The position numbers were made by a program, and so were the translations under genes. Under the pieces are notes generated by a model. That model saw only the letters and a list, made by a program, of their open reading frames with translations. It did no database searches and was not told where the DNA came from. Positions 19,025 to 64,000 of a DNA stretch of 64,000 bases are shown here, one piece after another (positions within the stretch are counted from its first letter, which is position 1; each line of letters opens with the position of its first letter). This DNA comes from Clostridia bacterium (GTDB lineage: Bacteria; Bacillota; Clostridia; Oscillospirales; Acutalibacteraceae), in assembly GCA_017399065.1 (NCBI GenBank), contig JAFQEL010000034.1, positions 280 through 64,279 on the forward strand, in the 5' to 3' direction.

Positions 19025-19215
19025 GCACTGCACCTCCTTTTAAAGCAGTAAATCAAAAATGAAAGCAGTTTAAACACTTATACAAACACGTATCTTTTAT
19101 TATAATACTACAGATATATAAAAATAGCAATAACAAAGATAAGACACAATCTTTGTGCAAAATGAGCAAAAACCCCGTCTGCTCTCTTTCAATAAGTCAG
19201 ACGGAGTTTTCATTT

Positions 19216-28281: not shown

Positions 28282-29124
28282 CTATTTCTCTCCCTTCATT
28301 GAGTATTCAGCCGAAATTTCAATAACATCGGCTGTAACTTGACTTTGACGTATGCGGTTTATCTGCGTTTCAAGCTGTGTGCTGTATTCACATGCAGTAT
28401 CATAAGCAGAGCGCATAGTTGTAAGAGTTGCAGCCTGTGCGCCTAAAGCAGTTTCAAGTATTTTTTTATACATAATTGAAGTAAATGTTTTTTCTGCGGT
28501 ATTATTTATAACTGTATCTTTGTCGGGAACAAATATGAAATTATCACCTTCATCTTTCCCTTCATCAATCGTAAACAGATCGCATAAAACCGGCTCTTGC
28601 TTAATCATATTTATATATTCAGGATATACCATTCTGACTGATGAAACGCTACCTTCCTTCATAAGAGAGCGTATTTCCTTAAACAACTCGCTCACTTCTG
28701 AATAAGAGGGGACATCATTGAATATATAAGCCTTTTTATAGGGGATTCCGTTAGACTGAAAGTGTTCTCTGACTTTCTTGCCGCAAGTAAAGATAACAGG
28801 TGTTTTTTTCTCTTTTTCAAGTATTCCATCAAAAAAACTGAGAAGTTCTGCATTAAAAGCACCGCACATACCCTTGTTTGCTGCCATAACTATATAGCAT
28901 ATAGGGGCATCTGCATTATTAAGACAAAATACGCTATTGAACTCTTTTCGATAAGTCTCATACAGACGACTGCACTGTTTTTCGTATTTTTCATAACTGC
29001 TGTAAAGACCGCTTAAACGGGAATATTTGACAGTAGAGGCAGTTTTCATCGCCAGAGTAGTTTTACGGGTTGAACGGATAACCTGAAGTTTCTTTTTTAA
29101 GTTTTGTACTGTTGCCATAATCAA
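28282..29124 (-). CDS. atpG: F1 ATP synthase gamma subunit
   Basis: N-terminal ..LKKKLQVIRSTRKTTLAMKTAS.. and C-terminal ..NRIRQSQVTADVIEI.. coiled-coil signatures. Operon position. Confidence 0.85.
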   Translation of the reverse strand: MIMATVQNLKKKLQVIRSTRKTTLAMKTASTVKYSRLSGLYSSYEKYEKQCSRLYETYRKEFNSVFCLNNADAPICYIVMAANKGMCGAFNAELLSFFDGILEKEKKTPVIFTCGKKVREHFQSNGIPYKKAYIFNDVPSYSEVSELFKEIRSLMKEGSVSSVRMVYPEYINMIKQEPVLCDLFTIDEGKDEGDNFIFVPDKDTVINNTAEKTFTSIMYKKILETALGAQAATLTTMRSAYDTACEYSTQLETQINRIRQSQVTADVIEISAEYSMKGEK

Positions 29125-31331
29125 AACCTCTCAGCAAATTCACCGATAGCTTCACTGAGTTCATTTTTAAGCTCATTGTCAAATTTTTCTGCAGTTTTCA
29201 CCTTATCGGTAAGTTCTGCTTTTTCTTCGGTAAAATATTTATAGAGTTTCTTTTCAAAATCTTCCATATTTTCCGGAATGATTTTGTCAGCATATCCGGT
29301 ACTTACGGCAAAGATAAGAATTGCCTGCAAATAATCGGGAACGGTGTTGTATCTGTTCTGTTTTAGAGCCTCTGTGAGAAGTCTGCCGGAAGCCAGAGTA
29401 GCTTTGGTAGCATCATCGATATCAGAACCGAACTGCATAAATTCAGCAAGTTCTCTGTACTGGGCAAGACGGGTGCGCAGAGAAGATGATATCTTTTTCA
29501 TAACGGGATTCTGTGCCGCACCGCCTACACGAGAAACAGAAAGTCCTACGTTGACAGCAGGTCTCTGACCTTCATTGAACAGTTCAGAGTCAAGAAAAAT
29601 CTGTCCGTCAGTAATTGAAATAACATTTGTGGGAATATATGCTGATATATCACCTGCAAGTGTTTCGATAATCGGAAGTGCGGTTATTGAACCGCCTCCG
29701 AGATCTTCAGAAAGATGAGCTGCTCTTTCAAGAAGTCTTGAATGGAGATAAAAAATATCACCGGGATAAGCTTCACGCCCTGACGGACGGTGAAGGAGAA
29801 GCGACAGTTCACGGTAAGCTACGGCATGTTTTGAAAGGTCATCATAAATAATCAGAACGTCCTTGCCGCTGTACATAAAATGTTCAGCTATAGCAGTAGC
29901 TGAGAAAGGCGCAATATACTGAAGAGCTGCTGAAGAAGACGCAGGCTCAGCAACGATGATTGTATAATCAAGCGCTCCGTGAGATTTAAGCTTTTCTTTG
30001 ATCTCTGAAACAAGTGTTTCTTTCTGACCTATTGCAACATATATACAAATTGTATCCTTACCCTTCTGATTGATGATTGTATCAACAGCAATAGCTGTTT
30101 TGCCTGTTTGCCGGTCACCGATAATAAGTTCTCTCTGTCCTTTACCAATCGGAACAAGAGCATCAATAGCCTTGATACCAGTATGTAGAGGTTTATTAAC
30201 CGGAGCACGGTCAAGAATACTCGGTGCCTTGAATTCTATAGGTCTTACTTCATCATAAGGGAGATAACCTTCCGCATCAATAGGATTACCGAGAGCATCC
30301 ACCACTCTGCCAAGAAGGGCATTACCTACGGGAACAGATGCGATTCTGCCGACTCTTCTTACCGGAGTACCGCTTTCAATATGAGCAAAATCGCCGAAGA
30401 TAACACAACCGATGCGATTCTGTTGAATATCGAGCACCATACCTCTTTCACCGCATTCAAATTCAACGACCTCGCCGTACATAATATCGGCAAGACCATC
30501 CATCCAGCATATACCGTCTGAAACAGTAATAACTCTGCCAAGCTGAAATACGTGAATATGAGGTCTGTAGGACTCAGCCTTTTCTGAAAACTCCTGAATA
30601 AGATGACCTACGGTATCTGTTGTCAGGATAGGCTCGTGGTTAAGATTCTGTGAGAATTGATAAAGCTCCTCGGCAACTGTTCCGTCATATACCGTATCGC
30701 CGATTCTCAGTTTGAGTCCGCCAATAAGAGACGGGTCCTCAAGTACCCATAATGAGGTTTTACCGCCTACCTCGTCAAGCATCGCGGTTGTAACCTCATC
30801 AACCTTTTTAACAATAGCCTTATCAAGCGGATAAGCCGACATAAGGGTAACATAGAGAACATCGTGATGCTTTAAGTATGCCATATCACCGGGAGTCAGT
30901 TTAATCTGCGGAAGAATTGCATCTATTATATTGGTATCAAGATCTCTTATTTCTTTTTGATATTTTTCATAAGAGAAAAGTTTTACAACATTTTCTCTCA
31001 TAATTGAGAAAAGTTCTTTGCGTGCATCCTCAATCATTTCACGGTGAATTTCGCGATGAATATGACCGCTAAATTCTTCTATCTGAGCAATTTTTTCATC
31101 AAAAACAGCTCTTGCAATTATAGTTTCTTCTGCACTGTTTTCGTCGTATTCTTCATGCTGATACTCCTCGAAAACAGGCATGGCTATTTTTTCTGTAGCT
31201 TCCGCTTCGTCAAGTTCACGATTGATTCTTTCAAAGCGGGAGTTAAAAATAGACCTGATCTTTTTCCTTCCGAACAAAAACAGTATAATTGCAAGAATTA
31301 TAAAGTTTATAATCACATATTGTATTTCCAT
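29121..31331 (-). CDS. atpA: Triple fusion: b'-like TM/coiled-coil stalk segment, delta (OSCP) C-terminal domain and F1 alpha subunit, in one 736-aa ORF
   Basis: aa 1-22 form a TM helix and a charged helix follows (b-type). ..VLEDPSLIGGLKLRIGDTVYDGTVAEEL.. is the delta/OSCP C-terminal signature. From ~aa 240 the alpha subunit runs with GDRQTGKT Walker A and ..ITDGQIFL... There is no stop or Met at the delta/alpha junction (..QFSQNLNHEPILTTDTVGHLIQEF..). Confidence 0.85.
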   Translation of the reverse strand: MEIQYVIINFIILAIILFLFGRKKIRSIFNSRFERINRELDEAEATEKIAMPVFEEYQHEEYDENSAEETIIARAVFDEKIAQIEEFSGHIHREIHREMIEDARKELFSIMRENVVKLFSYEKYQKEIRDLDTNIIDAILPQIKLTPGDMAYLKHHDVLYVTLMSAYPLDKAIVKKVDEVTTAMLDEVGGKTSLWVLEDPSLIGGLKLRIGDTVYDGTVAEELYQFSQNLNHEPILTTDTVGHLIQEFSEKAESYRPHIHVFQLGRVITVSDGICWMDGLADIMYGEVVEFECGERGMVLDIQQNRIGCVIFGDFAHIESGTPVRRVGRIASVPVGNALLGRVVDALGNPIDAEGYLPYDEVRPIEFKAPSILDRAPVNKPLHTGIKAIDALVPIGKGQRELIIGDRQTGKTAIAVDTIINQKGKDTICIYVAIGQKETLVSEIKEKLKSHGALDYTIIVAEPASSSAALQYIAPFSATAIAEHFMYSGKDVLIIYDDLSKHAVAYRELSLLLHRPSGREAYPGDIFYLHSRLLERAAHLSEDLGGGSITALPIIETLAGDISAYIPTNVISITDGQIFLDSELFNEGQRPAVNVGLSVSRVGGAAQNPVMKKISSSLRTRLAQYRELAEFMQFGSDIDDATKATLASGRLLTEALKQNRYNTVPDYLQAILIFAVSTGYADKIIPENMEDFEKKLYKYFTEEKAELTDKVKTAEKFDNELKNELSEAIGEFAERF

Positions 31332-50592: not shown

Positions 50593-50627
50593 TAAAAAGC
50601 TGACTCTGCTTTAAAAACAGAGTCAGC
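50593..50627 (-). terminator. Rho-independent terminator ending the ACS-VOR-ilvE operon
   Basis: On the minus strand, GCTGACTCTG..CAGAGTCAGC hairpin followed by a U-run. Confidence 0.75.
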
Positions 50628-50648: not shown

Positions 50649-51725
50649 TCAGTTAACCTTAACAATCCAGTTAAGCTTGTCTTCCTTCTTACCCCACTGG
50701 ATACCTGTAAGCTCATCATAAAGGAACTGAGCAACAGGACCGATCTTGGAATCATTGATAACAAGGTGCTCGTCGCCGTCGATATACTCACCTACAGGTG
50801 AAATAACAGCTGCTGTGCCTGTGCCGAAGGACTCTGTAAGCTTGCCTGCCTTGTAAGCTTCTTTGACTTCGTCAACAGAAAGCTTTCTTTCCTCAACCTT
50901 ATAGCCGTTTGCCTTAAGAACCTCGATACAAGAAGCTCTTGTAACACCGGGAAGGATGTTGCCGTCTTCAAGGGTCGGAGTGATAACAACGTCGTCAATT
51001 ACAAAGAATACGTTCATTGCACCTACTTCGTCGATATACTTTCTTTCAACACCGTCAAGCCAGAGAACCTGAGCATAGCCCATCTTATCAGCCTTTTCCT
51101 GACCGATAAGAGATGCAGCGTAGTTACCGCCTGCCTTAGCCATACCTGTACCGCCCTTTACGCAGCGGACATACTCTCTCTCGATATAGATCTTAACGGG
51201 ATCCATACCGTTAGCGTAATATGAGCCAACGGGAGAAAGGATGATGCAGAAAATATAGCTGTGAGAAGCGTGAACACCAAGGAAAGCATCTGTTGCGATG
51301 ATGAAGGGACGGATGTAAAGAGATGTTCCGTCACTGTGGGGAACCCAATCCTTATCTACATCAACAACAGCCTTGATAGCCTCAAGAGCGAGGTCGGGGT
51401 CAATACGCGGAACGCAAAGGCGGTCGCAAGTATTGTTCATTCTCTCGATATTCTTCTGAGGACGGAAAAGCTGTATGCTGCCATCAGCAACTCTGTAAGC
51501 CTTAAGACCCTCAAAAAGCTCCTGTGCATAGTGGAAAACCATTGATGACGGATCGAGAGCGAGAGGGCCGTAGGGAACGATTCTGCCGTCGTGCCAGCCC
51601 TGACCCTCATCATAATTCATTACAAACATATGGTCTGTAAAGATTTTACCGAAGCCGAGCTTGCTTTCGTCTGCGGGCTTTGCCTTGGGAGCAGTAGTTT
51701 TTTCTATTTTAAAATTGTAGCTCAT
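50649..51725 (-). CDS. ilvE: Branched-chain amino acid aminotransferase
   Basis: 358 aa from ATG 51725 (AAGAGG RBS). ..FEGLKAYR.. and ..GGTGMAKAGGNYAASL.. are class IV aminotransferase motifs. The track's longer ORF overlaps the upstream gene. Confidence 0.9.
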   Translation of the reverse strand: MSYNFKIEKTTAPKAKPADESKLGFGKIFTDHMFVMNYDEGQGWHDGRIVPYGPLALDPSSMVFHYAQELFEGLKAYRVADGSIQLFRPQKNIERMNNTCDRLCVPRIDPDLALEAIKAVVDVDKDWVPHSDGTSLYIRPFIIATDAFLGVHASHSYIFCIILSPVGSYYANGMDPVKIYIEREYVRCVKGGTGMAKAGGNYAASLIGQEKADKMGYAQVLWLDGVERKYIDEVGAMNVFFVIDDVVITPTLEDGNILPGVTRASCIEVLKANGYKVEERKLSVDEVKEAYKAGKLTESFGTGTAAVISPVGEYIDGDEHLVINDSKIGPVAQFLYDELTGIQWGKKEDKLNWIVKVN

Positions 51726-51750: not shown

Positions 51751-52281
51751 TCAATAATCATAACCGAGCTTGAGAGCTGTTTTGTTAACTTCAAGAAGGT
51801 TCTGATGACGTGCAGATACAACCTTTGACAAGGGAGCATCGATACCGTCGAAACCGAGCATCGGGACTTCTTTGAGAAGCTTACCTGTTATGATCATATT
51901 TGCAAGTGTGCTGATGCCTTTTTCGTTTGCAATCTCTGTTGCGGGAATATAGTAAACGTCAACGTCTGTTCTTTCAACCTTACGGGAAATAAGTGTTGAA
52001 TCGACAAAGATCTTACCGCCCGAAACAACCTCGTTTTCGTATCTGTCAAGTGAGGGAAGGTTCATTGCAACAAGAACATCAGGATTGCTGACGATCGGTG
52101 AACCGATAGGCTCATCGCTTACGATAACACTGCAGTTTGCTGTACCGCCGCGCATTTCGGGGCCGTAGGACGGGAGCCAGGAAACCTGCTTGTTTTCAAG
52201 AAGACCCTTGTAAGCAACAAACTTACCTGCAAAAAGGATACCCTGACCGCCGAATCCGGCAAAAAGAATATTACAGCTCAT
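51751..52281 (-). CDS. 2-oxoacid:ferredoxin oxidoreductase, gamma subunit
   Basis: [20 protein letters not shown].. is the canonical gamma N-terminus. ATG 52281 lies immediately after the beta stop. Confidence 0.85.
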
Positions 52282-52282
52282 A

Positions 52283-53041
52283 TTATTTTGCCTCCTCTTC
52301 TGCATAGATATCTTTATAAACACCGAGAGGATAGTAAGGAAGCATATTTTCCTCAAGCCACTCGAGTGCTTTTACAGGTGTCATACCCCAGTTTGTAGGA
52401 CAGGTTGAAACAACCTCAATAAGAGAGAAGCCTTTGCCTTCAATCTGGTTCTGGAAAGCCTTTTTGATAGCTTTCTTTGCCTTTTTTATGTTTGCGGGAC
52501 TGTTGACTGCAACTCTTTCAAGATAAGCTGCACCGTCAACTTTTGAGAGAAGCTCGCAAACCTTTACGGGATAGCCGACTGTCTCAACATCTCTGCCGTA
52601 AGGAGAGGTCTGAGTAACCTGACCGGGAAGAGTTGTCGGAGCCATCTGACCGCCTGTCATACCGTAAATAGCGTTGTTAACGAAAATTACAGTGATATTC
52701 TCTCTTCTTGCTGCTGCGTGAACTGTTTCTGCAGTACCGATAGCTGCAAGGTCACCGTCACCCTGATATGTAAATACAATATTGTTTTCAGGGTCTGCAC
52801 GCTTGACACCTGTTGCAACAGCCGGTGCTCTGCCGTGAGGAGCCTGAACAAAATCAACATCAAAATAATCGTAAGCCATAACGGAGCAACCAACGGGTGC
52901 TACACCGATTGTTCTGCCCTGAATACCAAGCTCGTCAATTGCTTCGGCAACAAGTCTGTGAATAATACCGTGTGTACAACCGGGGCAATAGTGGAGAGTT
53001 GCATCTGTCAATGACTTGGGTTTTTCAAATACTATAGCCAT
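52283..53041 (-). CDS. 2-oxoacid:ferredoxin oxidoreductase, beta (TPP-binding) subunit
   Basis: ..YCPGCTHG.. Cys motif and [12 protein letters not shown]-binding motif. Confidence 0.9.
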
Positions 53042-54105
53042 TATTTATTGCCTCCTTCATTGACTTTTTCTATCTTTGCAAGAACCTCTTCGGGAGAAGG
53101 AATCATACCGCCTACGCGGTTGCAAAGATATACGGGCTTCTTGCATTCGATAGCAAGCTGAATGTCTTCAATCATCTGACCCATATTCATTTCAACGGAA
53201 ATAAATGCCTTGCACTTATCTGCAGCTGCATTAAGAACCTTGTTGGGGAACGGCCAGAGAGTGATAGGACGAATCATGCCTACCTTGATGCCCTTTGCTC
53301 TTGCTTCTACGATTGCATTCTTAGCTACACGGGCTGTAATGCCGAAAGAAACAACGCAGATTTCTGCATCTTCCATTAAGTACTCTTCGTAAAGAACTTC
53401 GTTCTCTTCTATTTCTTTATAGCGCTCATAACGCTCAAAGTTTGTCTTTTCAAGTTCTTCCGGCTTAAGGTAAAGAGAGTTGACAATGTTATGCTTTCTC
53501 TCGCCTTTTGTGCCTGTAAGTGCCCAGGGCTTATCAAATGTTTTTGCGTTGGGCTCAGGAAGCTCAACGGGCTCCATCATCTGACCCATAGTACCGTCAG
53601 CAAGAATCATAGCAGGCATTCTGTACTTATCTGCAAGATCAAATGCAGTTGAAGTAAGAGAAGCCATTTCCTGAACTGATGACGGTGCAAGAACAATCTT
53701 CTTGAAGTCGCCGTGGCTTCCGCCCTTAACTGCCTGGAAATAGTCCGACTGTGAAGGCTGGATACCGCCGAGGCCGGGGCCGCCGCGCTGAACATTGACA
53801 ATAAGTGCAGGAAGATCAGAGCCTGCAAGATATGAAATACCTTCGCTCTTAAGAGATACACCCGGGCTTGATGATGATGTCATAACACGCTTACCTGTTG
53901 CGGCAACACCAAGCACCATATTTACGGCAGCAATTTCACTTTCTGCCTGAAGGAATACGCCGCCGATCTTAGGCATACGTTTTGCCATATAAGCAGCGAT
54001 TTCTGTCTGAGGAGTAATAGGATAACCGAAGTAGTGCATACAGCCTGCTCTGATAGCAGCTTCAGCAATAGCCTCGTTACCTTTCATTAAAACTTTCTCA
54101 CCCAT
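53041..54105 (-). CDS. 2-oxoacid:ferredoxin oxidoreductase, alpha subunit (VorB/KorA-like)
   Basis: ..[25 protein letters not shown].. canonical alpha N-terminus. Confidence 0.9.
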
Positions 54106-54116
54106 TTATTTTCACC

Positions 54117-54323
54117 TTACCTTTCAACCGTAATTGCACAGTCAGGACACATTGTTGCACAGAAAGCGCAACCGATGCACTGACTCTCATCAACACAATG
54201 TGCAGGATGATGTCCCTTTGCATTAAGCTTTGCAGAGTCAAGCTCTACTATCTTTTTAGGACAAACTGTGACGCATAAGCCACAGCCCTTGCATACATTT
54301 TCTGCGAATGTTACTTTTGCCAT
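54117..54323 (-). CDS. 2-oxoacid:ferredoxin oxidoreductase, delta subunit (2x[4Fe-4S] ferredoxin)
   Basis: CKGCGLCVTVCP and CIGCAFCATMCP. ATG 54323 lies 9 nt after GGAGG. Confidence 0.85.
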   Translation of the reverse strand: MAKVTFAENVCKGCGLCVTVCPKKIVELDSAKLNAKGHHPAHCVDESQCIGCAFCATMCPDCAITVER

Positions 54324-54352
54324 TTTTTCTGCCTCCATTCAAAGAAAAAATC

Positions 54353-55015
54353 TTAAACTATCTTTTTTTGTAAAGTCAGCGGAAACAGATTCGGGATCTT
54401 TCCGTTGAGATTATTAACTAAATCTGCTGTTACTGTTGTCATTTTTACGGGAAGCTGAGAAATCTCACTTAACCTCTCTGCCTCGGCAACAGAACTTAAA
54501 ACGTCTTCAGGAGTTGTAAGCCCACCGAGATTCGAATTGTTTACAATAGCGGTGAAGCTGATTTTGCCTGCCGCCTCTATCTCGCGCATAATTTCAATAG
54601 CATCCTCTGCTGTAGGAGTAAGGGGTCTGTACTTATTGAAAACAAAAAGCATTTCGTAATCGTTTTCGTCTTTTATGTAATCGGCGTAACGGCCTAAAGC
54701 ATAAGCACCGCGGTCATCGCCGCCGATATCCATTATAGCACTTTCTCCCTGTTTGTCAAAAATCGAATAGACCTCCTGAGGCAGTGCGGGTAAATCGACA
54801 TTGGATGAAGCAAACTCGGAGGATATAAGGCGTATTCCTGCCTGAGTCAGCTCATCAATACTGTCTCTTGTGCGGAAATAGGGATTGACAATATCAAGGT
54901 CTGCAACAACAACGTCTTTGCCGAGATTTTTAAGATAAAAAGCATAGTTGACTGCTATGTTTGTTTTACCCGAGCCGTAATGGCCTGCTAACAGCGTAAC
55001 ACGTTTGCTTTGCAT
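54353..55015 (-). CDS. P-loop NTPase of the MinD/ParA/CooC (SIMIBI) type, unknown role
   Basis: Deviant Walker A LLAGHYGSGKTN, ..VVADLDIVNPYF... Embedded between the acyl-CoA synthetase and the oxidoreductase genes. Confidence 0.6.
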   Translation of the reverse strand: MQSKRVTLLAGHYGSGKTNIAVNYAFYLKNLGKDVVVADLDIVNPYFRTRDSIDELTQAGIRLISSEFASSNVDLPALPQEVYSIFDKQGESAIMDIGGDDRGAYALGRYADYIKDENDYEMLFVFNKYRPLTPTAEDAIEIMREIEAAGKISFTAIVNNSNLGGLTTPEDVLSSVAEAERLSEISQLPVKMTTVTADLVNNLNGKIPNLFPLTLQKKIV

Positions 55016-55036: not shown

Positions 55037-57325
55037 TTATAATTTGTTTCTCATTATCTTGCCGCTTGTTGTTTTGGGAAGCTCATCTCTGAACACAACA
55101 ATTCGCGGATATTTGTAAGGAGCTGTTTTCGCCTTAACGTACTGCTGAATATCCTTCTTGAGCTCCTCTGTAGGCTCTGTGCCCTTGACAAGAACAATGC
55201 TTGCCTTTACAACCTGACCGCGCACCTCATCGGGAGCGGCTGAAACACCGCACTCAAGAACATAAGGAAGCTCCATAATAACACTTTCGATTTCAAACGG
55301 GCCTATACGGTAGCCTGATGACTTGATAACGTCATCAACACGGCCGACGTACCAATAGAAACCGTCTTCATCCTGCCATGCAACGTCGCCGGTGTGATAA
55401 TAGCCGTCGTGCCAGACTTCTTTGGTTTTGGCTTCGTCATTGTAGTAGCCTGTGAACAGACCGCAGGGAGCACCGTCCTTGACGTTGACAACGATTTCGC
55501 CGTTTTCACCGACGGGCACTTCGTTGCCGTCGTTATCAACGAGCTTAACGTCATAAATCGGAGCAGGTTTACCCATTGAGCCGATTTTATGGTCTGCACC
55601 GGTCATATTACCGATAATCATTGTGCTTTCGGTCTGACCGAAGCCCTCGAGAATCTGAAGACCCGTTGCCTTTTCAAACTGGCGGTAAACCTCGGGGTTA
55701 AGAGCCTCACCTGCTGTTGTCATATGCTTGACAGAAGAGAAATCGTAATTCGAAATATCCTGCTTGATCATCATTCTGAGCATTGTGGGCGGTGCACAGA
55801 AGGTTGTGATATGATGCTTTGCAAACATCGGTAAGATATCTGCTGCATCAAATCTGTCAAAGTCGTAAACAAAGGTTGCTGCCTCACAAAGCCACTGGCC
55901 ATATAGCTTACCCCACATTGACTTAGCCCAGCCTGTATCGGAAATTGTAAAATGAAGACCGTCAGGGTCAACATTGTGCCAATACTTTGCCGTATGGAAA
56001 TGGCCTAAAGCATATTTATAGTTGTGAGCTGCAATTTTTGGATAACCTGTTGTGCCTGATGTGAAGAACATAAGCATAAGGTCGTCTCCACCTGGAGCAT
56101 TCTCTCCTCTTTCGTAGTGAGTGCTGTAAAGAACTCTTTCCTCGTCGAAGTTTCTCCAGCCTTCTCTTTCACCGTTGACAATAATCTTGTGTTCAAGTGA
56201 AGGACAGGTTCTTGCAGCTAAATCTACCTGATGAGCTGTATCACCGTCTGCAGTGCAAAGAATAGCTTTGACGCCTGCAGCCTGGAAGCGGTACTCAAAG
56301 TCGTGCTCCTGAAGCTGATTCGGTGCGGGAATTGCAACAGCACCCAGCTTATTGAGACCAATCATAGCGTACCAGTACTGATAATGGCGCTTAAGAACGA
56401 GCATAACTCTGTCGCCTTTTTTGATGCCAAGGGATTTGAAATAGTTAGCTGCCTGAGCAGAGCCTTTCTTCATATCCTTGAAAGTAATACGTCTTTCGGT
56501 CTTGTCTCGTGAAATATGAAGCATTGCAAGCTTTTCCGGTTCTTTGTCTGCAAGCTCATCTACAAGGTCAAAAGCAAAATTGAAATTTTCTGTATTCTTG
56601 AACTTAATTGATGTCGGAGTACCCTTTTCATTCTCAACAACATCAACATACTTCTGGTAAATACGCTTTTTTGTATCCTTGACGGTTGACTTTGTATCCT
56701 TAACCTTCTTAGCAGGCTGAAGCTCAGGAATAGGCTCGCCCGAAGGATTAAGAACGATAGCATAGAAGGTACAGTCCTTACCGTCAACAGCAATCATGCC
56801 GTGAGGTGTAAGTGAATCGTAATAAATGCTGTCGCCGGGACCAAGGATTTCGGAATGTTCGCCGACCTGAACCTTAAGCTTACCTTCAATAACAATATCA
56901 AGCTCCTGACCGTCGTGAGATGTTAGCTCAATATCCTTATTCTGATTTTCTTCGCTGTATGTAGCTTCAACAAAAAGAGGCTCGGCAATTTTGTTCTTGA
57001 ATTTTGCAGCAAGGTTGAAATATGTCATACCGTGTGCTTTTTCAATTTTCTGACCCTTACCTGCCTTTGTGAAAACGTAGTTGGTGAGCTTGGGAGTACT
57101 ACCCTCGATGATACTTGTAACATCAACATTAAAAGCTAACGCACAGCGGTAGATAAAAGCAAAGTTAAGATCACTCTCGCCGTTTTCACAAGCAAGATAT
57201 TCACCCTCGGAAACACCTGTTTTCTCAGCCATCTGGGCTGCGGTATATCCTTCAATTTCACGAAGCTCTCTGATTCTGGCGGCCATTTCCTTGATTTTAA
57301 AATCAAGACCCGTCATTTTCTCCAT
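55037..57325 (-). CDS. XRE-type HTH plus cupin sensor domain fused to an AMP-forming (medium/short-chain) acyl-CoA synthetase; copy 1
   Basis: aa 1-70: ..RIRELREIEGYTAAQMAEKTGVSEGEYLACENG.. (HTH_3). aa ~120-200: cupin (..GDSIYYDSLTPHGM..). Then FFTSGTTGYPK, YHTGD, GRVDDVIKSSGYRIGPFEIE and PKTTSGKIMR. ATG 57325 lies 8 nt after AGGAGG. Confidence 0.85.
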   Translation of the reverse strand: MEKMTGLDFKIKEMAARIRELREIEGYTAAQMAEKTGVSEGEYLACENGESDLNFAFIYRCALAFNVDVTSIIEGSTPKLTNYVFTKAGKGQKIEKAHGMTYFNLAAKFKNKIAEPLFVEATYSEENQNKDIELTSHDGQELDIVIEGKLKVQVGEHSEILGPGDSIYYDSLTPHGMIAVDGKDCTFYAIVLNPSGEPIPELQPAKKVKDTKSTVKDTKKRIYQKYVDVVENEKGTPTSIKFKNTENFNFAFDLVDELADKEPEKLAMLHISRDKTERRITFKDMKKGSAQAANYFKSLGIKKGDRVMLVLKRHYQYWYAMIGLNKLGAVAIPAPNQLQEHDFEYRFQAAGVKAILCTADGDTAHQVDLAARTCPSLEHKIIVNGEREGWRNFDEERVLYSTHYERGENAPGGDDLMLMFFTSGTTGYPKIAAHNYKYALGHFHTAKYWHNVDPDGLHFTISDTGWAKSMWGKLYGQWLCEAATFVYDFDRFDAADILPMFAKHHITTFCAPPTMLRMMIKQDISNYDFSSVKHMTTAGEALNPEVYRQFEKATGLQILEGFGQTESTMIIGNMTGADHKIGSMGKPAPIYDVKLVDNDGNEVPVGENGEIVVNVKDGAPCGLFTGYYNDEAKTKEVWHDGYYHTGDVAWQDEDGFYWYVGRVDDVIKSSGYRIGPFEIESVIMELPYVLECGVSAAPDEVRGQVVKASIVLVKGTEPTEELKKDIQQYVKAKTAPYKYPRIVVFRDELPKTTSGKIMRNKL

Positions 57326-57350: not shown

Positions 57351-57630
57351 CAAAACATAAAAACCCGTCCCAAAGATATCTTTGAGACGAGTTATATATA
57401 ACCCGCGGTACCACTCAAATTGCAGTAATAACTGCCACTCTCAAGGTCTGTCAACCTCTATGCATTAACGCAGCAATCACGGAGAGGTTCTACTGAGCAC
57501 AAACGCCGTTCTTCCTCCCGGCTCAGAAACTACAAACAACAGAAACCTTGCTATGACTTGCACCGACCGTCATTTCTCTATAAAGCTTGGTATACTGTGC
57601 CCTTTTCTTCAACGCCTTTACTATTCAACT
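57351..57630 (-). promoter_or_regulatory. T-box riboswitch leader 1 (specifier read as GUA, Val)
   Basis: Minus strand. K-turn GGC-GUU-GA..GA-GCC, AGAGA bulge, GGUCGGUGCAA distal loop, UGCGUUA F-box. T-box AAUUUGAGUGGUACCGCGG (57421..57403). Terminator CGUCUCAAAGA..UCUUUGGGACG plus U-run. Confidence 0.8.
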
Positions 57631-57636
57631 TTCTCA

Positions 57637-57665
57637 AAGATACCACAACTGTTTTGAAAAGTCAA
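57637..57665 (-). promoter_or_regulatory. Promoter of T-box leader 1
   Basis: Minus strand TTGACT, 17-nt spacer ending in TG, TATCTT. Confidence 0.45.
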
Positions 57666-57690
57666 TACATTATTTAATATATATTATATA

Positions 57691-59976
57691 TTAAAGCTTG
57701 TTTCTCATAATTTTACCGCTGATTGTTTTCGGGAGCTCATCTCTGAAAACAACAATTCTCGGATATTTATAAGGAGCCGTATTTTTCTTGACGTATTCCT
57801 GAATCTCTTTCTTGAGTTCCTCTGTCGGCTCAGTACCCTTGGTAAGAACAATGCTTGCCTTGACAACCTGACCGCGGACCTCATCGGGAGCAGCTGAAAC
57901 ACCGCACTCAAGAACATACGGAAGCTCCATAATAACGTTTTCTATTTCGAACGGACCGATACGATAGCCCGATGACTTGATAACGTCATCAACACGGCCG
58001 ACATACCAGAGATATCCGTCTTCATCACGCCAAGCAGTATCACCTGTATGATAAAGGCCGTCGTGCATAGCCTCACCGGTTTTTTCTTCATCGACTTCAC
58101 AGCCTTTATAGTAGCCAAGGAACAGTCCACACGCATTTTTATCGCCCAACCTTACAACAATTTCGCCTGTTTCACCGTCTGCAACAGACCTGCCGTCAGG
58201 ATCGACAACATCGATATTATAAAGAGGTGTAGGTCTACCCATAGCACCGATTTTGATCTTTGAGCCATTAAGGTTTGCAATTGACAGAGTAGTTTCAGTC
58301 TGACCGAATCCCTCGTGAATTCTGAGACCCGTTACCTTTTCGAACTGCTTGAAAACCTCCGGATTAAGAGCTTCACCTGCCGTAGTTGCGTGCTTTATTG
58401 AGGACAAATCGTACTGTGAAATATCCTGCTTGATAAGCATTCTGTACATTGTGGGAGGTGCACAGAATGTTGTGATGTTGTATTTTGCAAACATAGGAAG
58501 AATCTTCGAAGCATCAAAACGCTCGAAGTCATAAACAAACACACAGCCCTCGCAAAGCCACTGTCCGTAGAGTTTACCCCACAGTGCTTTACCCCAGCCT
58601 GTTTCTGAAATCGTGAAATGGACACCGTCACGCTGTACACAGTGCCAATATTTTGCTGTAATAAAATGACCAAGAGGATACTTGTGGCTGTGAGCAGCAA
58701 TTTTCGGATAGCCTGTTGTACCTGAGGTGAAGAGCATAATCATCGGGTCATCACCGCAGGCAGCATCTGCTTCACGGACAAAACGTCTGCTGAAAAGGCC
58801 GAACTCCTCATCGAAATTATGCCAGCCCTCTTTTGAGCCGTTAGCAACAATTTTGGTTTTAAGAGTAGGACAATTTTTTTGAGCCTCGTCTATATAATCT
58901 GTTGCCTTACCGTCTGCAGTAACTACAACTGCACTTACACCTGCTGCATTGAAGCGGTATTCATAGTCGTGCACAACAAGCTGATTTGTTGCAGGAATCG
59001 CAATCGCACCGAGCTTATGGAGGCCGAGAATAGCAAACCAGAACTGATAGTTACGCTTAAGCACAAGAAGAACTCTGTCACCCTTCTTGATACCTAAAGA
59101 TTTAAAGTAGTTAGCTGCCTGAGAGGAATATTCTTTCATTTCCTTGAAAGTAAATTTGCGTTCTGTCATATCGTCTGAAATATGAATCATCGCGAGCTTC
59201 TCAGGATATGTTCTGCCGATTTTATCAATAACGTCAAATGCAAAGTTAAAGCTGTCTTCGTAATTGAACTCAATGCTGTTACAGACACCGTTTTCATCAA
59301 CAGTTGTTTTGATGAATTTGTCACAGATAAGCTTATCTTCTGCAGTAGATTTACCTGTATTGACAGTGCTCATATGGTTATCTGCAAGCTTCTCATCCTC
59401 CGCCATAACCATAGCAAGGAAAAGACAATCTTCACCGTCAACAGCTATCATACCGTGAGGAATAGAGCTGTTGTAGAATATACTGTCGCCCTCGTGAAGA
59501 ATTTCAACGTGCTCACCTACCTGAACCTTAAGAGCACCCTTTACAACAAGATCAAACTCCTGACCGGAGTGAGTTGTAACCTCAATAGGCTTTGACTGAA
59601 GCTCACTGGAATACTCGTATTTTACCCAGTAGGGATTGGCGAGCTTATTTTTAAACTTGGGAGCAAGGTTCTGAATAAGAATACCTTCTTCATTCGCTGT
59701 TACCTGACCCTGTCCGCGTCTTGTAACATTATAGGTTGTGAGCTTTGCACTCTGACCCTCAAGAATGTCTGTAAGCTCAACGCCAAAAGCCAATGCGCAC
59801 TTATGAACAAATGAGAAAGGCATATCCTCCATACCGTTTTCGTATGCAAGATATTCTTCGATACTTACGCCTGTTTTATCAGCCATTTCAATATCTGATA
59901 AATTATAAATGTCGCGGAGCTCTTTAATTCGCTCGGCCACCTCTACCAGTTTGTTTTCATAAGAATTGTTAAGCAT
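57691..59976 (-). CDS. XRE-type HTH plus cupin sensor domain fused to an AMP-forming acyl-CoA synthetase; copy 2 (paralogue)
   Basis: Same architecture as copy 1 (..RIKELRDIYNLSDIEMADKTGVSIEEYL.., ..GDSIFYNSSIPHGM.., LFTSGTTGYPK, GRVDDVIKSSGYRIGPFEIE, PKTISGKIMR). Confidence 0.85.
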   Translation of the reverse strand: MLNNSYENKLVEVAERIKELRDIYNLSDIEMADKTGVSIEEYLAYENGMEDMPFSFVHKCALAFGVELTDILEGQSAKLTTYNVTRRGQGQVTANEEGILIQNLAPKFKNKLANPYWVKYEYSSELQSKPIEVTTHSGQEFDLVVKGALKVQVGEHVEILHEGDSIFYNSSIPHGMIAVDGEDCLFLAMVMAEDEKLADNHMSTVNTGKSTAEDKLICDKFIKTTVDENGVCNSIEFNYEDSFNFAFDVIDKIGRTYPEKLAMIHISDDMTERKFTFKEMKEYSSQAANYFKSLGIKKGDRVLLVLKRNYQFWFAILGLHKLGAIAIPATNQLVVHDYEYRFNAAGVSAVVVTADGKATDYIDEAQKNCPTLKTKIVANGSKEGWHNFDEEFGLFSRRFVREADAACGDDPMIMLFTSGTTGYPKIAAHSHKYPLGHFITAKYWHCVQRDGVHFTISETGWGKALWGKLYGQWLCEGCVFVYDFERFDASKILPMFAKYNITTFCAPPTMYRMLIKQDISQYDLSSIKHATTAGEALNPEVFKQFEKVTGLRIHEGFGQTETTLSIANLNGSKIKIGAMGRPTPLYNIDVVDPDGRSVADGETGEIVVRLGDKNACGLFLGYYKGCEVDEEKTGEAMHDGLYHTGDTAWRDEDGYLWYVGRVDDVIKSSGYRIGPFEIENVIMELPYVLECGVSAAPDEVRGQVVKASIVLTKGTEPTEELKKEIQEYVKKNTAPYKYPRIVVFRDELPKTISGKIMRNKL

Positions 59977-60013
59977 AATCTCACCCTTTCAGGAAAAATA
60001 AATTTAAAAAATT

Positions 60014-60302
60014 CAAAAAAAAACGCCCCAAAAAGAAATTCAACATTTCTCTTTGAGACGAATTATAAAATCCGCGGTACCACTCAAATTGCAAGCAAAG
60101 CCTGCCGCTCAGGGGTCTATCAACCCTTTTGCACTAACGCAGCATTCTCGGAAGAAGCCTACTGGGAAACCGTTCGGTTCTTCAACTCGGAAGGGATAGG
60201 TTATTAAAACAAGGTACTGTTGGCTCGCAGCAACCGCCAACTCTCTGAAAGTCCATAGTTTCAACCGTCTTCGTCATAGTTTTTACTTGAGATATGAAAT
60301 TT
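60014..60302 (-). promoter_or_regulatory. T-box riboswitch leader 2 (specifier read as AUC, Ile; less certain)
   Basis: Minus strand. K-turn AAC-UAU-GA..GA-GUU, AGAGAG bulge, GGUUGCUGCGA distal loop, UGCGUUA F-box. T-box AAUUUGAGUGGUACCGCGG (60090..60072). 16-bp terminator plus U9. Confidence 0.8.
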
Positions 60303-60308
60303 GGATAA

Positions 60309-60337
60309 ATAATATCACAATGTAATTTTGGTGTCAA
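60309..60337 (-). promoter_or_regulatory. Promoter of T-box leader 2 (divergent from the leader 3 promoter)
   Basis: Minus strand TTGACA, 17-nt spacer, TATTAT. Confidence 0.5.
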
Positions 60338-60394
60338 TAGTTTTTTAAAAAATTTTTTCAAAGCGATTTTGTTATATTAATGTATAAAAAACAG

Positions 60395-60423
60395 TTGACA
60401 AAATATAATTTTAGTGATATTAT
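60395..60423 (+). promoter_or_regulatory. Promoter of T-box leader 3
   Basis: TTGACA (60395-60400), 17-nt spacer, TATTAT (60418-60423). Confidence 0.5.
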
Positions 60424-60429
60424 TTTTGC

Positions 60430-60720
60430 ATATTTTTTATATTTGTTAAATGCTACGAAGGAATTACGTCTTTTTGGTACGGCAGTTCAGAGAGTTGACG
60501 GCAGGTGCAAGTCAATCTGTTACAAAAATTCGGTCTCGTTCCGGAGCAGAGCTCCCCAACCGCTTACGGCATGTAAGGAGCTACGGACGCCCCGTTATCA
60601 TGGCTACAGGCTTTTTAGAGCCTTAATGAGTGACTGCTTTTGCAGTAACCGGGGTGGTACCGCGGATTTTGAAATTCGTCCCTGAGGTCATATTACAGTG
60701 ACCTCAGGGCTTTTATTTAT
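60430..60720 (+). promoter_or_regulatory. T-box riboswitch leader 3 (specifier CUC, Leu)
   Basis: K-turn UGC-UAC-GA (60451-60458) .. GA-GCA (60544-60548), AGAGAG bulge, GGCAGGUGCAA distal loop, CCGUUA F-box. T-box AACCGGGGUGGUACCGCGG (60647-60665). Terminator CCCTGAGGTCA..TGACCTCAGGG plus a T-run. Confidence 0.85.
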
Positions 60721-60752: not shown

Positions 60753-62165
60753 ATGAGCGAAATGAGAAAAATCATTATTGCAGACCGTACAGTGGTTCTT
60801 AAATCACAGTCAAAGGACACATCTCTAAGCTTTAAAGAAAAAGTTGAAATCGCAAGACTTCTCGAAAGTGCAAAGGTTCAGGTTGTAGAATTTCCTGCGA
60901 TTGAAAACGTTAAAATTGATACTCTGCTACTCAAAACAATCTGTGCATTTCTGAAAAACAGCACAATGAGTGTATGCACAGGAATGACCGAGGAGGGTGT
61001 AACAAACGCATGGAATGCTATTTCTTCTGCATCAAACCCCCGCCTTTCCGTTGCGCTCCCCCTCTCACCTGTTCAGATGGAATATGTCTGCCACAAAAAG
61101 GCACCGAAAATGCTTGAGCTTATCACTTCACTTATTGAGAAATCAGCTTCTCTTTGCAATGACGTCGAGTTTGTTGCACTTGATGCTACAAGAGCAGAAA
61201 AAGATTTCCTTTACGAAGCAATCAACACAGCAATCAATGCAGGCGCAAAAACCGTCACAATCTGCGATGACGAAGCAGCAATGCTCCCCGATACTTTTGT
61301 AAGCTTTATTAAAAAAATAAAAGAAGATGTTCCCGCAATAAACAGCGTTAAGCTCGGTGTTATGTGCGACAATAAGAACGGTTGCTCTGCAGCAGCTTCA
61401 ATGATGGCTCTTGCTGCAGGCGCAGACGAAATCAAGGCCGCCAGCGGCAAGGATCTTGGCATAGCATCACTGCTTACTGTTTCCAACATTGTAAGAAACA
61501 GCGGTGACAGACTGGGAATCAATGCTGATCTTAACTACACAGAGTTTGCAAGAATAATCTCTCAGGTTTCAAACCTAACAGACGGTAAGCCCAACGCAGA
61601 TGCCGTAGGCTCTGCAGTTCCATATTCTGAGTTCAACCTTACGGAGAACGATGATGCTCAGACCGTTGCAGATGCTGTCAAGAAGCTCGGCTATGACCTC
61701 TCAGAGGATGATAACGCAAAGGTTTACGAAGCATTCAAAGCCCTTGCAAAGAAAAAGCCTGTTTCAAACAAAGAGCTCGACGCTATAGTGGCCACAAGTG
61801 CACTTCAGGTTACACCTGCATACAAGCTCATTAACTACGTTATCAACTCGGGTAACATAATAAATTCATCCGCTCAGATTACTCTTGAAAAAGATGAGCA
61901 GGAGAAAAATGCCATTGCTATCGGTGACGGTCCTATTGATGCTGCTTTCAATGCCATTGAGCAGATTCTCGGTCATCACTACGAGCTTGACGATTTCCAG
62001 ATTCAGTCTGTTACCGAAGGCAGAGAAGCCGTTGGCTCAGCTATTGTAAGACTTCGTTCCAACGGCAAGCTCTATGCCGGTAAGGGTATTTCAACAGACA
62101 TTATCGGTGCAAGCATCAAAGCATATATCAATGCAATCAACAAGATTATTTTTGAGGAGAACTGA
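60753..62165 (+). CDS. LeuA/CimA-family (DRE-TIM) homologue with degenerate active site and an intact C-terminal LeuA-dimer/regulatory domain
   Basis: Aligns along its whole length with 2-isopropylmalate synthase, but DTTLRDGEQ is replaced by DRTVVLKSQ and HxH(D/N)D by MCDNKN. The C-terminal GDGPIDAAFNAIEQI..GKGISTDIIGASIKAYINAINK is conserved. Confidence 0.7.
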   Translation: MSEMRKIIIADRTVVLKSQSKDTSLSFKEKVEIARLLESAKVQVVEFPAIENVKIDTLLLKTICAFLKNSTMSVCTGMTEEGVTNAWNAISSASNPRLSVALPLSPVQMEYVCHKKAPKMLELITSLIEKSASLCNDVEFVALDATRAEKDFLYEAINTAINAGAKTVTICDDEAAMLPDTFVSFIKKIKEDVPAINSVKLGVMCDNKNGCSAAASMMALAAGADEIKAASGKDLGIASLLTVSNIVRNSGDRLGINADLNYTEFARIISQVSNLTDGKPNADAVGSAVPYSEFNLTENDDAQTVADAVKKLGYDLSEDDNAKVYEAFKALAKKKPVSNKELDAIVATSALQVTPAYKLINYVINSGNIINSSAQITLEKDEQEKNAIAIGDGPIDAAFNAIEQILGHHYELDDFQIQSVTEGREAVGSAIVRLRSNGKLYAGKGISTDIIGASIKAYINAINKIIFEEN

Positions 62166-62170
62166 TAACT

Positions 62171-64000
62171 ATGAAGCTTTCTTTTTCAACTAAGGGTTGG
62201 CACGGATATTCATGGGATGAACTCTGCAACATAGCAGAAAAACAAGGTTTCAACGGTATTGAGCTCCATAATATCAACAACTCTTCATTCAACGAAAAAA
62301 ACGGTGCATTTTATTCAACCTCCGCTCAGGCAACAGTCAGAAATATGTACGAGAAGAATCTCAGAATTCCTTGTATTGACACCCTCGCAAACTCTGCCTG
62401 TGTAGAGGACAGAGAAGCTTTTACAAAAGAGCTTGATAAATGCCTTGAGATTGCCTGCACTCTTCATATCCCCTACGTACGTATTAAGGCAACTGACACA
62501 GGTGCAGATTACGACACACAGAAAAATGAGGTTATAAGCGTACTTTCAGCAATCATTCCCAAGGCTGAAAAATTAGGTGTTACAATCATCATTGAAACAG
62601 CAGGTATTTTTGCTGACACATCAAAGCTTCTTGAGGTGCTCAACACCTTTGCCTGTGACAGCCTTGCTGCTCTGTGGGACGTTTATTCAACTTACTTTAT
62701 AGCAAAAGAAGAGCCTGAAATCACAATCAAAAACCTTGGTGCATACGTTAAGCACGTACACATAAAGGATGCTGTCAGTGAAGACGGTGCCCTCACCTAC
62801 TGTCTTATCGGCGAAGGTGAGCTTCCGATTAACGAGGTTGTACTGTCACTCACATCTGTTAACTACAACGGTTATGCATCAATAGAATGGGATCCCAAAT
62901 GGATGCCTGAGCTTGATGATATGGAGATCATCTTCTCTCACTACGTGAGCTTTATGGCTCGTTTCGGTAACACCTCAAGAGGTAAGAAAAACCTTTTCTG
63001 GAACAAAACACATACAGGTAACTACGTCTGGAAAAAGGAAACTCTTATCGAAAAGACCTTCTCACAGGTGCTTGATAAAATGGTTGAGGAATTCCCTGAC
63101 CAATACGCTTTCAAATACACAACTCTCGATTACACAAGAACATATTCTCAGTTCCGCGATGACGTTGACGAGTGCTGCCGTGCATTCCTTGCTCTCGGCG
63201 TAAAGCCCGGCAGTCACGTTGCCGTATGGGCAACTAATGTTCCTCAGTGGTATATTGCTTTCTGGGCAGCAACAAAAATCGGTGCTGTTCTTGTTACAAT
63301 GAACACAGCGTACAAAATTGCTGAAGCAGAGTATCTTCTCAAGCAGTCTGACACACATACACTTATTCTTATTGACGGCTGGAGAGATTCCAACTACAAC
63401 GAAATAATCGGTCAGCTTTGTCCTGAGCTTGAAAACACTGTACCCGGCGAACCTCTTCATTCAAAGAGACTTCCGTTCCTCAGAAACGTTATTACAGTCG
63501 GTTTCAAGAAAAAAGGCTGCCTTACCTGGGATGAGGCTATTGCAAGAGCATCCGAAGTTCCTGTTGAAGAGGTTTACAGAATTGCAGCTAACGTTGACGT
63601 AAACGACGTATGTAATATGCAGTACACCTCAGGTACAACAGGCTTCCCCAAGGGCGTTATGCTCACTCACTACAATATCGTTAATAACGGTAAGAATATC
63701 GGCGACAGAATGGATCTTTCAACCGCTGACAGAATGATGATTCAGGTACCTATGTTCCACTGCTTCGGTATGGTTCTCGCAATGACCGCAACAATGACAC
63801 ACGGCGGCACAATATTCCCTCTCCCCTACTTTTCACCCAAGCCGTCTCTTGCCTGCATCAACAACGAAAGAATCACCGCATTCCACGGTGTTCCTACAAT
63901 GTTTATTGCTCTGCTTGAGCATCCTGACTTCCCAAAGACTGATTTCTCATATATGAGAACAGGTATTATGGCAGGCAGCCCTTGTCCGATTTCTGTTATG
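62171..64000 (+). CDS. Fusion of a xylose-isomerase-like TIM barrel (sugar phosphate isomerase/epimerase, AP_endonuc_2 type) and an AMP-dependent acyl-CoA ligase; 3' end beyond the window
   Basis: Absent from the ORF track (no stop). I read 610 uninterrupted codons from ATG 62171. N-terminal ~285 aa: MKLSFSTKGWHG..GIELHN..VRIKA..IIIETAG..HIKD..SIEWD. From ~63050: ..FSQVLDKMVEEFPDQYAF.., YTSGTTGFPKGVMLTH, ..GVPTMF... Confidence 0.75.
   Translation, partial: MKLSFSTKGWHGYSWDELCNIAEKQGFNGIELHNINNSSFNEKNGAFYSTSAQATVRNMYEKNLRIPCIDTLANSACVEDREAFTKELDKCLEIACTLHIPYVRIKATDTGADYDTQKNEVISVLSAIIPKAEKLGVTIIIETAGIFADTSKLLEVLNTFACDSLAALWDVYSTYFIAKEEPEITIKNLGAYVKHVHIKDAVSEDGALTYCLIGEGELPINEVVLSLTSVNYNGYASIEWDPKWMPELDDMEIIFSHYVSFMARFGNTSRGKKNLFWNKTHTGNYVWKKETLIEKTFSQVLDKMVEEFPDQYAFKYTTLDYTRTYSQFRDDVDECCRAFLALGVKPGSHVAVWATNVPQWYIAFWAATKIGAVLVTMNTAYKIAEAEYLLKQSDTHTLILIDGWRDSNYNEIIGQLCPELENTVPGEPLHSKRLPFLRNVITVGFKKKGCLTWDEAIARASEVPVEEVYRIAANVDVNDVCNMQYTSGTTGFPKGVMLTHYNIVNNGKNIGDRMDLSTADRMMIQVPMFHCFGMVLAMTATMTHGGTIFPLPYFSPKPSLACINNERITAFHGVPTMFIALLEHPDFPKTDFSYMRTGIMAGSPCPISVM

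Follow-up and report, generated by a model that had tools for sequence, protein, structure and literature searches.

Three T-box leaders with valine, isoleucine and leucine specifiers precede genes of a predicted branched-chain acid assimilation module in gut Oscillospirales

A stretch of DNA of 64,000 nt from a Clostridia bacterium (Acutalibacteraceae; contig JAFQEL010000034.1), referred to below as the window, was predicted from its letters to contain three T-box riboswitches, one each for valine, isoleucine and leucine, all lying within positions 57351-60720. The question raised by this locus is whether each leader really reads the amino acid assigned to it, and what the genes placed under such a triad might do. 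The best explanation of our data, which we put forward with considerable confidence, is that three T-boxes accompany a tRNA-gated route leading from branched short-chain fatty acids to Ile, Val and Leu.

Three T-box leaders and their specifier codons

The leaders were compared to the Rfam covariance model RF00230, which has a gathering score of 93. All three regions gave full-length matches (model positions 1-219), with E-values of 1e-19 to 7e-21. The Ile leader (leader 2; 60015-60286 on the minus strand, from the RF00230 match and the terminator) scored 100.3 bits over 60286..60051, and the Leu leader (leader 3; 60446-60719 on the plus strand, delimited in the same way) scored 98.1 bits over 60446..60686, both above the gathering score. 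The Val leader (leader 1; 57352-57621 on the minus strand) matched over 57621..57380 with 87.2 bits (E 1.2e-19), and extends through Stem I, Stem II/IIA-B, Stem III, antiterminator and terminator to the U-run.

The 19-nt T-box strings of the original prediction, each with a UGGU bulge, were found where it had placed them: CCGCGGTACCACTCAAATT at 57403-57421 and again at 60072-60090, both on the minus strand (leaders 1 and 2), and AACCGGGGTGGTACCGCGG at 60647-60665 on the plus strand (leader 3). The 12-mer GTGGTACCGCGG is present in three copies in the window compared to 0.06 expected, a number reached in 0/100 shuffles. All three leaders carry GAGUGGUACCGCGG or GGGUGGUACCGCGG, and the antiterminator is made up of 5 bp, a 7-nt UGGUACC bulge and 7 bp. 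The remaining elements of the prediction were likewise recovered in each leader. Stem I has a UGA...GA kink-turn (K-turn), an AGAGA(G) bulge and a GGNNNNUGCRA distal loop, and its helices covary across relatives. The F-box, UGCGUUA in leaders 1 and 2 and CCGUUA in leader 3, aligns to the CGUUA of the model, a predicted element of the Stem IIA/B pseudoknot. A UGGU bulge fits a tRNA with discriminator A, and UGGU is found in the bulge of 169/169 leaders from related loci. As judged from sequence and predicted fold, the three elements are transcriptional T-box riboswitches, ordinary as RNAs.

In the RF00230 alignment, the specifier triplet is followed by one base, a 4-bp helix, one further base, GA and the C-stem. 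The same register had been arrived at in the original prediction by using the K-turn as a ruler, and the specifier columns hold the triplets it had read: GUA (Val) then G in leader 1 (57531-57533, minus strand), AUC (Ile) then C in leader 2 (60195-60197, minus strand) and CUC (Leu) then G in leader 3 (60535-60537, plus strand). The strings running from codon to K-turn are GTAGTTTCTGAGCC (reverse complement of 57520-57533), ATCCCTTCCGAGTT (reverse complement of 60184-60197) and CTCGTTCCGGAGCA (60535-60548, plus strand) in leaders 1 to 3, respectively. CUC is also the Leu specifier of the Bacillus subtilis ilv-leu leader.

Independent evidence came from a comparison with related loci. A scan with an alignment of the two ligase paralogs of the window (ACS1 and ACS2, described below), keeping one genome per GTDB species, yielded 80 loci from metagenome-assembled genomes of Acutalibacteraceae, Oscillospiraceae, Ruminococcus and Faecousia from ruminant and human gut; a relative of the ligases is encoded in at least 569 of 600 candidate stretches from GTDB species-representative genomes. 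T-box motifs were located in the related loci and genes were mapped by tblastn. Regular-expression matches reading TGGCACCGCG or TGGAACCGCG that were intragenic or had no Stem I candidate were dropped as chance matches. Leaders were aligned class by class with MAFFT, making no use of codon information, and codons were counted in the columns aligned to the codon of the window. When the three leaders of the window were aligned with one another in MAFFT, the specifier region was misplaced; no model was built on this alignment, and each orthologous class was aligned separately. It should be noted that a script applying the K-turn ruler met tied candidates in 41/169 leaders, with a tie-break that favoured the expected codon; the codon counts given here are taken from the alignment columns, which do not depend on the script.

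The aligned codon was ATC in all 74 leaders upstream of an ACS2-type ligase (74/74). In the 52 aligned leaders upstream of an ACS1-type paralog it was GTA (46) or GTC (6), and in the 41 upstream of a LeuA-like gene CTC (26), CTG (14) or CTT (1), with no other triplet in either class (52/52 and 41/41, respectively). Codon positions 1 and 2 are invariant, and changes at position 3 are confined to Val and Leu, the two four-fold families. The flanking bases are free to vary: in the Ile class, ATC is preceded by U or C and followed by A, C or G. Both the covariance-model columns and the 80 related loci are thus in agreement with the Val, Ile and Leu specifiers initially proposed.

Some properties of the leaders nonetheless count against this identification. 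The S-turn consensus (AGUA...GAA) is absent from the specifier loop of all three leaders in the RF00230 alignment: the AGUA columns of the model contain AGGG in leader 1, are deleted in leader 2 and contain ACGU in leader 3, and the GAA columns contain GUU, UAA and GU-, respectively. In the Ile class (60184-60255, minus strand, in the window), covariation leaves a minimal loop of 2 x 5 nt, with AC opposite N-AUC-N. The Ile leader of the window has a pyrimidine (C) after the codon, where a purine is usual and where leaders 1 and 3 have G. The score of the Val leader, 87.2 bits, is below the gathering score. Lastly, genes for tRNA-Val, tRNA-Ile and tRNA-Leu were found neither in the window, where the only tRNA gene is for tRNA-Pro, nor in 60 related loci.

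The S-turn is a variable accessory motif, and its absence is a difference that gives no ground for exclusion from the T-box family. The modest RF00230 scores are probably explained by specifier loops that depart from this consensus. As for leader 1, only about 2 of ~10 Val-class leaders reached the gathering score when 16 related loci were scanned with Rfam; its low score is therefore a property of the Val class, which standard annotation would miss, since the scores of this class are systematically below the threshold. The base following AUC in 73 Ile orthologs is A in 43 cases, C in 28 and G in 2. By these counts, the C found after AUC here is a variant of some lineages, A being the base in most relatives.

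The C after AUC, and the low posterior probability of the covariance-model register in loops without the consensus S-turn, could also be taken to mean that one or more specifiers have been wrongly assigned, leader 2 for example exposing CUA (Leu), and that the Val/Ile/Leu triad was produced in part by the choice of register. RNAalifold predicted 42 pairs in the 74 Ile leaders, 31 of which show compensatory changes. The helix directly above the codon occupies columns 42-45/114-117 (pair types UA, CG and AU) and the helix directly below it, GAAG/CUUC, columns 36-39/123-126; on the 3' strand, only the 5-nt N-AUC-N is left unpaired between these covarying helices. The CUA reading, an alternative fold that the original prediction had allowed for leader 2, is ruled out: its C is paired within a helix showing compensatory changes (columns 42/117, G-C in 70/74) and its middle base is U in some sequences and C in others. 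Under the Val and Leu codons, too, the helix covaries (GAAG/CTTC, GAAA/TTTC, GGAG/CTCC; GGAA/TTCC, GATA/TATC, GCGG/CCGC). In the Leu class, RNAalifold did not recover the base of Stem I from an alignment that is too divergent, and support for the specifier of this class comes instead from the covariance-model columns, the codon column of the class alignment and the counts of helix types. Together with an ATC that does not change while its neighbours do, Val and Leu codons that vary only synonymously, and a perfect association of specifier class with the type of downstream gene, these data make a misassignment barely credible.

Expression platforms and the pairing of leaders with genes

Antiterminator and terminator are mutually exclusive in all three leaders, because one strand serves as the 3' strand of the former and as the 5' arm of the latter. 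The competing hairpin and U-run noted in the original prediction are intrinsic terminators with stems of 12-16 bp, more stable than the antiterminator in all three cases. Leader 1 has a 14-bp stem followed by UUUAUGUUUU (57362-57393, minus strand), and the minimum free energy (MFE) of its 3' region is -24.5 kcal/mol with the terminator vs. -11.0 for a truncated, terminator-free form. In leader 2, a 16-bp stem is followed by U9 (60024-60060, minus strand; MFE of -21.1 kcal/mol with the terminator vs. -7.1 to -8.9 with the antiterminator), and in leader 3 a 12-bp stem is followed by CUUUUAUUUA (60680-60709, plus strand; -32.2 vs. -9.6 to -10.8 kcal/mol, respectively). A match to mir-513 at 57355-57401 was discarded, being just the terminator hairpin of leader 1.

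Promoter-like sites were found upstream of the leaders, those of leaders 2 and 3 being strong. The Ile leader is preceded by TTGACA-17-TATTAT with a TG extension (60309-60337, minus strand; 11/12 matches) and the Leu leader by a divergent TTGACA-17-TATTAT (60395-60423, plus strand; 11/12 matches). A weak site with TG, TTGACT-17-TATCTT, lies upstream of leader 1 (57637-57665, minus strand) and is a consensus match only (9/12). Read-through from upstream into leader 1 would also be possible, since the upstream gene has no terminator.

These platforms bear on whether the leaders still work. One might suppose that they, and leader 1 especially, are decaying or non-functional relics, expression being constitutive or governed by the helix-turn-helix (HTH) domains of the ligases; leader 1 does fall short of the gathering score, and the ligases do have an N-terminal XRE-type HTH domain. 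We consider this very improbable. The functional elements are all intact and the terminators are strong, compensatory changes accompany the conservation of the leaders among genomes with protein identities of only 65-70%, and the low score, typical of the Val class, is no mark of decay.

The genes under the two minus-strand leaders form a single series: Ile leader, ACS2 (57691-59976), Val leader, ACS1 (55037-57325), a CbiA/ParA-type P-loop protein (54353-55015; Pfam), the four subunits of a VOR-type 2-oxoacid:ferredoxin oxidoreductase in the order delta-alpha-beta-gamma (51751-54338), the branched-chain (class IV) aminotransferase IlvE (50649-51725) and an operon terminator (50599-50627). On the plus strand, the Leu leader is followed by a LeuA-like gene (60753-62165) and by a gene encoding a fusion protein (62171-64000) that runs off the window.

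Ligase type and specifier class are paired one-to-one across the related genomes. ACS2 relatives always follow an ATC leader, and ACS1 relatives, where a leader is present, always follow one with GTA or GTC. No related genome shows a change of specifier class in any of the three units, whether these are divergent, as in the window, or arranged as a collinear array with three T-boxes (e.g. L016, L022, L040). There is no leader between the two ligases in L021, L025, L038, L046, L050 and L059, and ACS1 is absent from L024, L028, L039, L052 and L060. In some relatives, VOR (and IlvE) are consequently under the Ile leader only, the internal Val leader or ACS1 itself being missing. IlvE ends the operon in most relatives.

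A predicted route from branched acids to amino acids

The T-box mechanism, in which uncharged tRNA lets transcription proceed and charged tRNA cannot, suggests how this gene set might operate. The anticodon of uncharged tRNA-Val, -Ile or -Leu would pair with the specifier codon and its free NCCA end with UGGU, stabilizing the antiterminator and permitting read-through into the genes; charged tRNA would be unable to stabilize the antiterminator, and transcription would stop. An AMP-forming ligase would then make the acyl-CoA of a branched acid (2-methylbutyrate for Ile, isobutyrate for Val and isovalerate for Leu), VOR would turn the acyl-CoA into a 2-oxoacid, presumably by reductive carboxylation, and IlvE would produce the amino acid by transamination. 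The specifier codon of each leader would thus mark the substrate class of the ligase it controls. Established T-box logic supports the biosynthetic direction, because the genes would be induced by uncharged tRNA.

ACS2 is a 761-aa acyl-CoA synthetase in which Pfam domains define an XRE-type HTH, a cupin and an AMP-binding region, and ACS1 is a paralog 64% identical to it. The best match of the catalytic region in the PDB is 3ETC of Methanosarcina acetivorans (E 3.5e-183), and the top NCBIfam model for both proteins is MbcS (NF047394; 431 and 440 bits). An AMP-binding plus AMP-binding_C core is common to all of these proteins, and ACS1 and ACS2 differ from MbcS and 3ETC in their N-terminal HTH-cupin module and in scores below the equivalog cut-off. 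Comparison at this level indicates that ACS1 and ACS2 probably work like MbcS, though they should not be filed as MbcS. Purified Staphylococcus aureus MbcS is selective for 2-methylbutyrate and isobutyrate and acts poorly on isovalerate (PMC10026030). This selectivity fits a locus in which the Ile and Val leaders are each followed by an MbcS-like paralog and the ligase under the Leu leader is of another lineage; the two preferred acids match the Ile and Val specifiers above the window paralogs. We infer that ACS2 is a 2-methylbutyrate-CoA ligase and ACS1 an isobutyrate-CoA ligase, both functions being predictions from homology and leader.

The HTH-cupin module of ACS1 and ACS2 comprises ~230 aa at the N-terminus and is outside the region matched (query residues 237-761). 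A cupin is fused to the ligase in all 120 database relatives among the matches listed, most of which also have the HTH and a few no recorded HTH match; these relatives are named only 'AMP-binding protein'. Compared to solved structures, the module gave a sole, uninformative match to a 65-aa XRE HTH protein (E 1.6e-4). DNA binding or allosteric sensing would be possible roles.

The four VOR subunits were assigned with Pfam and NCBIfam: delta (54117-54338; Fer4), alpha (53041-54105; POR_N and PFOR_II), beta (52283-53041; TPP_enzyme_C) and gamma (51751-52281; POR), all on the minus strand. The alpha subunit scored 558 bits with NF005507 ('3-methyl-2-oxobutanoate dehydrogenase subunit VorB'; cut-off 399), and beta, gamma and delta are below their specific NCBIfam cut-offs. 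The aminotransferase exceeds the cut-off of 307 for IlvE (NF009897) with 498 bits. The P-loop protein gave no match in NCBIfam; nearly all related loci keep it between ligase and VOR delta, and it is a possible iron-sulfur maturation factor for VOR. A weak match of this protein to the NUBPL iron-transfer nucleoside triphosphatase family was also seen.

In the Leu arm, the gene directly under the T-box encodes a protein with the HMGL-like TIM barrel and the C-terminal allosteric/dimerization domain (LeuA_dimer) of LeuA (PDB 3RMJ), from which it differs in that catalytic residues are replaced. RDGEQ has become VLKSQ (Arg→Val, Asp→Leu), with loss of the catalytic Arg and Asp, and HCHND has become MCDNK, with loss of both metal-binding His residues (HxH). 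The same losses are seen in ~46 homologs (loci L001-L079), and the protein is below every NCBIfam cut-off for LeuA. By these residues, the LeuA-like protein is a conserved pseudoenzyme and no active isopropylmalate synthase. Having kept the leucine-binding allosteric domain, it may serve as a leucine sensor for the adjacent ligase. In this ligase, a FadD13-like AMP-binding domain is fused to a xylose-isomerase-like TIM barrel (AP_endonuc_2); its gene starts 5 nt past the stop codon of the LeuA-like gene and always follows that gene in relatives. It belongs to a different lineage from ACS1/ACS2 and is predicted to be an isovalerate-CoA ligase, the weakest of the inferences made here.

A bolder extension of the proposed route is that the HTH-cupin modules and the dead isopropylmalate synthase could be amino-acid-sensing allosteric modules. 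Were this the case, the system would have two layers of feedback, one of RNA and one of protein.

Three observations are harder to reconcile with the route to amino acids. The scores of 431-440 bits place ACS1/ACS2 far below the MbcS equivalog cut-off of 850, and no characterized isovalerate ligase is specifically similar to the ligase of the Leu arm. In the window, moreover, VOR and IlvE are placed under the Val leader alone, with the consequence that cells starved of just Ile or just Leu would depend on a leaky or basal expression of these genes.

The T-boxes could also be real and the operons serve another end, namely to supply branched acyl-CoA primers for branched-chain fatty acids of the membrane, as S. 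aureus MbcS does, with ACS scavenging acids and with IlvE and VOR running oxidatively from amino acids. The closest named family, MbcS, indeed serves branched-chain fatty acid primers (PMC10026030, PMC11167679), and VOR and IlvE are reversible in principle. It would, however, be counter-productive to degrade an amino acid while its tRNA is uncharged, and three amino-acid-specific switches on three ligases are better suited to amino acid supply. The position of IlvE at the end of the operon in most relatives, and the lack of adjacent fatty acid synthesis genes in the window and in relatives, also speak against primer supply, which we regard as unlikely. Whereas MbcS feeds fatty acid synthesis, the context of ACS1/ACS2 points to the synthesis of amino acids.

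The route to Ile, Val and Leu has a precedent in physiology. Allison, Bryant and co-workers reportedly established in the 1960s-70s that rumen bacteria carboxylate branched-chain volatile fatty acids reductively to branched-chain amino acids. The chemistry predicted here is the same (acid to acyl-CoA to 2-oxoacid to amino acid), as are the habitat and the lineage, fibre-degrading Oscillospirales of the ruminant and human gut. The rumen work was physiological and enzymological. In full-text searches, we found no paper assigning genes to the assimilation of branched-chain volatile fatty acids in Clostridia, although an earlier mention is possible. A further proposal, for and against which we see the balance as about equal, is that the triad identifies a module, widespread in gut and rumen Oscillospirales and not assigned before, which makes Ile, Val and Leu from branched short-chain fatty acids, each acid having its own CoA ligase gated by the cognate uncharged tRNA.

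As RNAs, the leaders are further members of the well-known T-box family, and it is the regulon that is unusual. They share with class I transcriptional T-boxes (B. subtilis ilv-leu, tyrS) the K-turn, Stem I, AG bulge, distal loop and specifier, the Stem IIA/B F-box, Stem III, the 14-nt T-box sequence, the 7-nt UGGNACC bulge and the terminator with its U-run, the Leu leader having even its codon in common with ilv-leu. They differ from this class by the lack of a recognizable S-turn, the minimal loop of the Ile class and the pyrimidine after AUC in the window. The genes listed in the T-box surveys PMC2494555 and PMC3766115 are those of aminoacyl-tRNA synthetases, biosynthetic enzymes and transporters, with no oxidoreductase or acyl-CoA ligase. 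The genes found here, by comparison, encode acyl-CoA ligases, VOR and IlvE, and no aminoacyl-tRNA synthetases, ilv/leu enzymes or transporters. We found no paper tying T-boxes to VOR or acyl-CoA ligase genes, although a mention in the surveys of Vitreschak 2008 or Gutierrez-Preciado 2009 is possible.

The controlled genes are of more interest than the RNAs that control them. The specifier codons act as functional labels on otherwise anonymous genes, and the locus offers a testable gene set of three ligases with predicted substrates, one VOR, one transaminase and three riboswitches whose regulatory logic is predicted. A long-standing physiological question is in this way made directly testable.

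Other features of the window and its relatives

Elsewhere in the window, a single open reading frame of 736 aa (29121-31331, minus strand) within an F-type ATP synthase operon contains ATP synthase b, delta (OSCP) and alpha domains. It is either a genuine fusion or the result of an assembly that misses stop codons. A 1552-aa protein (14375-19033, minus strand) has a type I dockerin, Listeria-Bacteroides repeats and GLUG motifs, and is surrounded by many glycoside hydrolases (GH2, GH30, GH43, rhamnosidases) and esterases. The dockerin protein and the hydrolases around it fit a fibre degrader of the cellulosome type. In one related genome, a match to the Rfam Gut-1 small RNA (L019, 1359-1433, plus strand; 59.8 bits, gathering score 50) lies upstream of the module.

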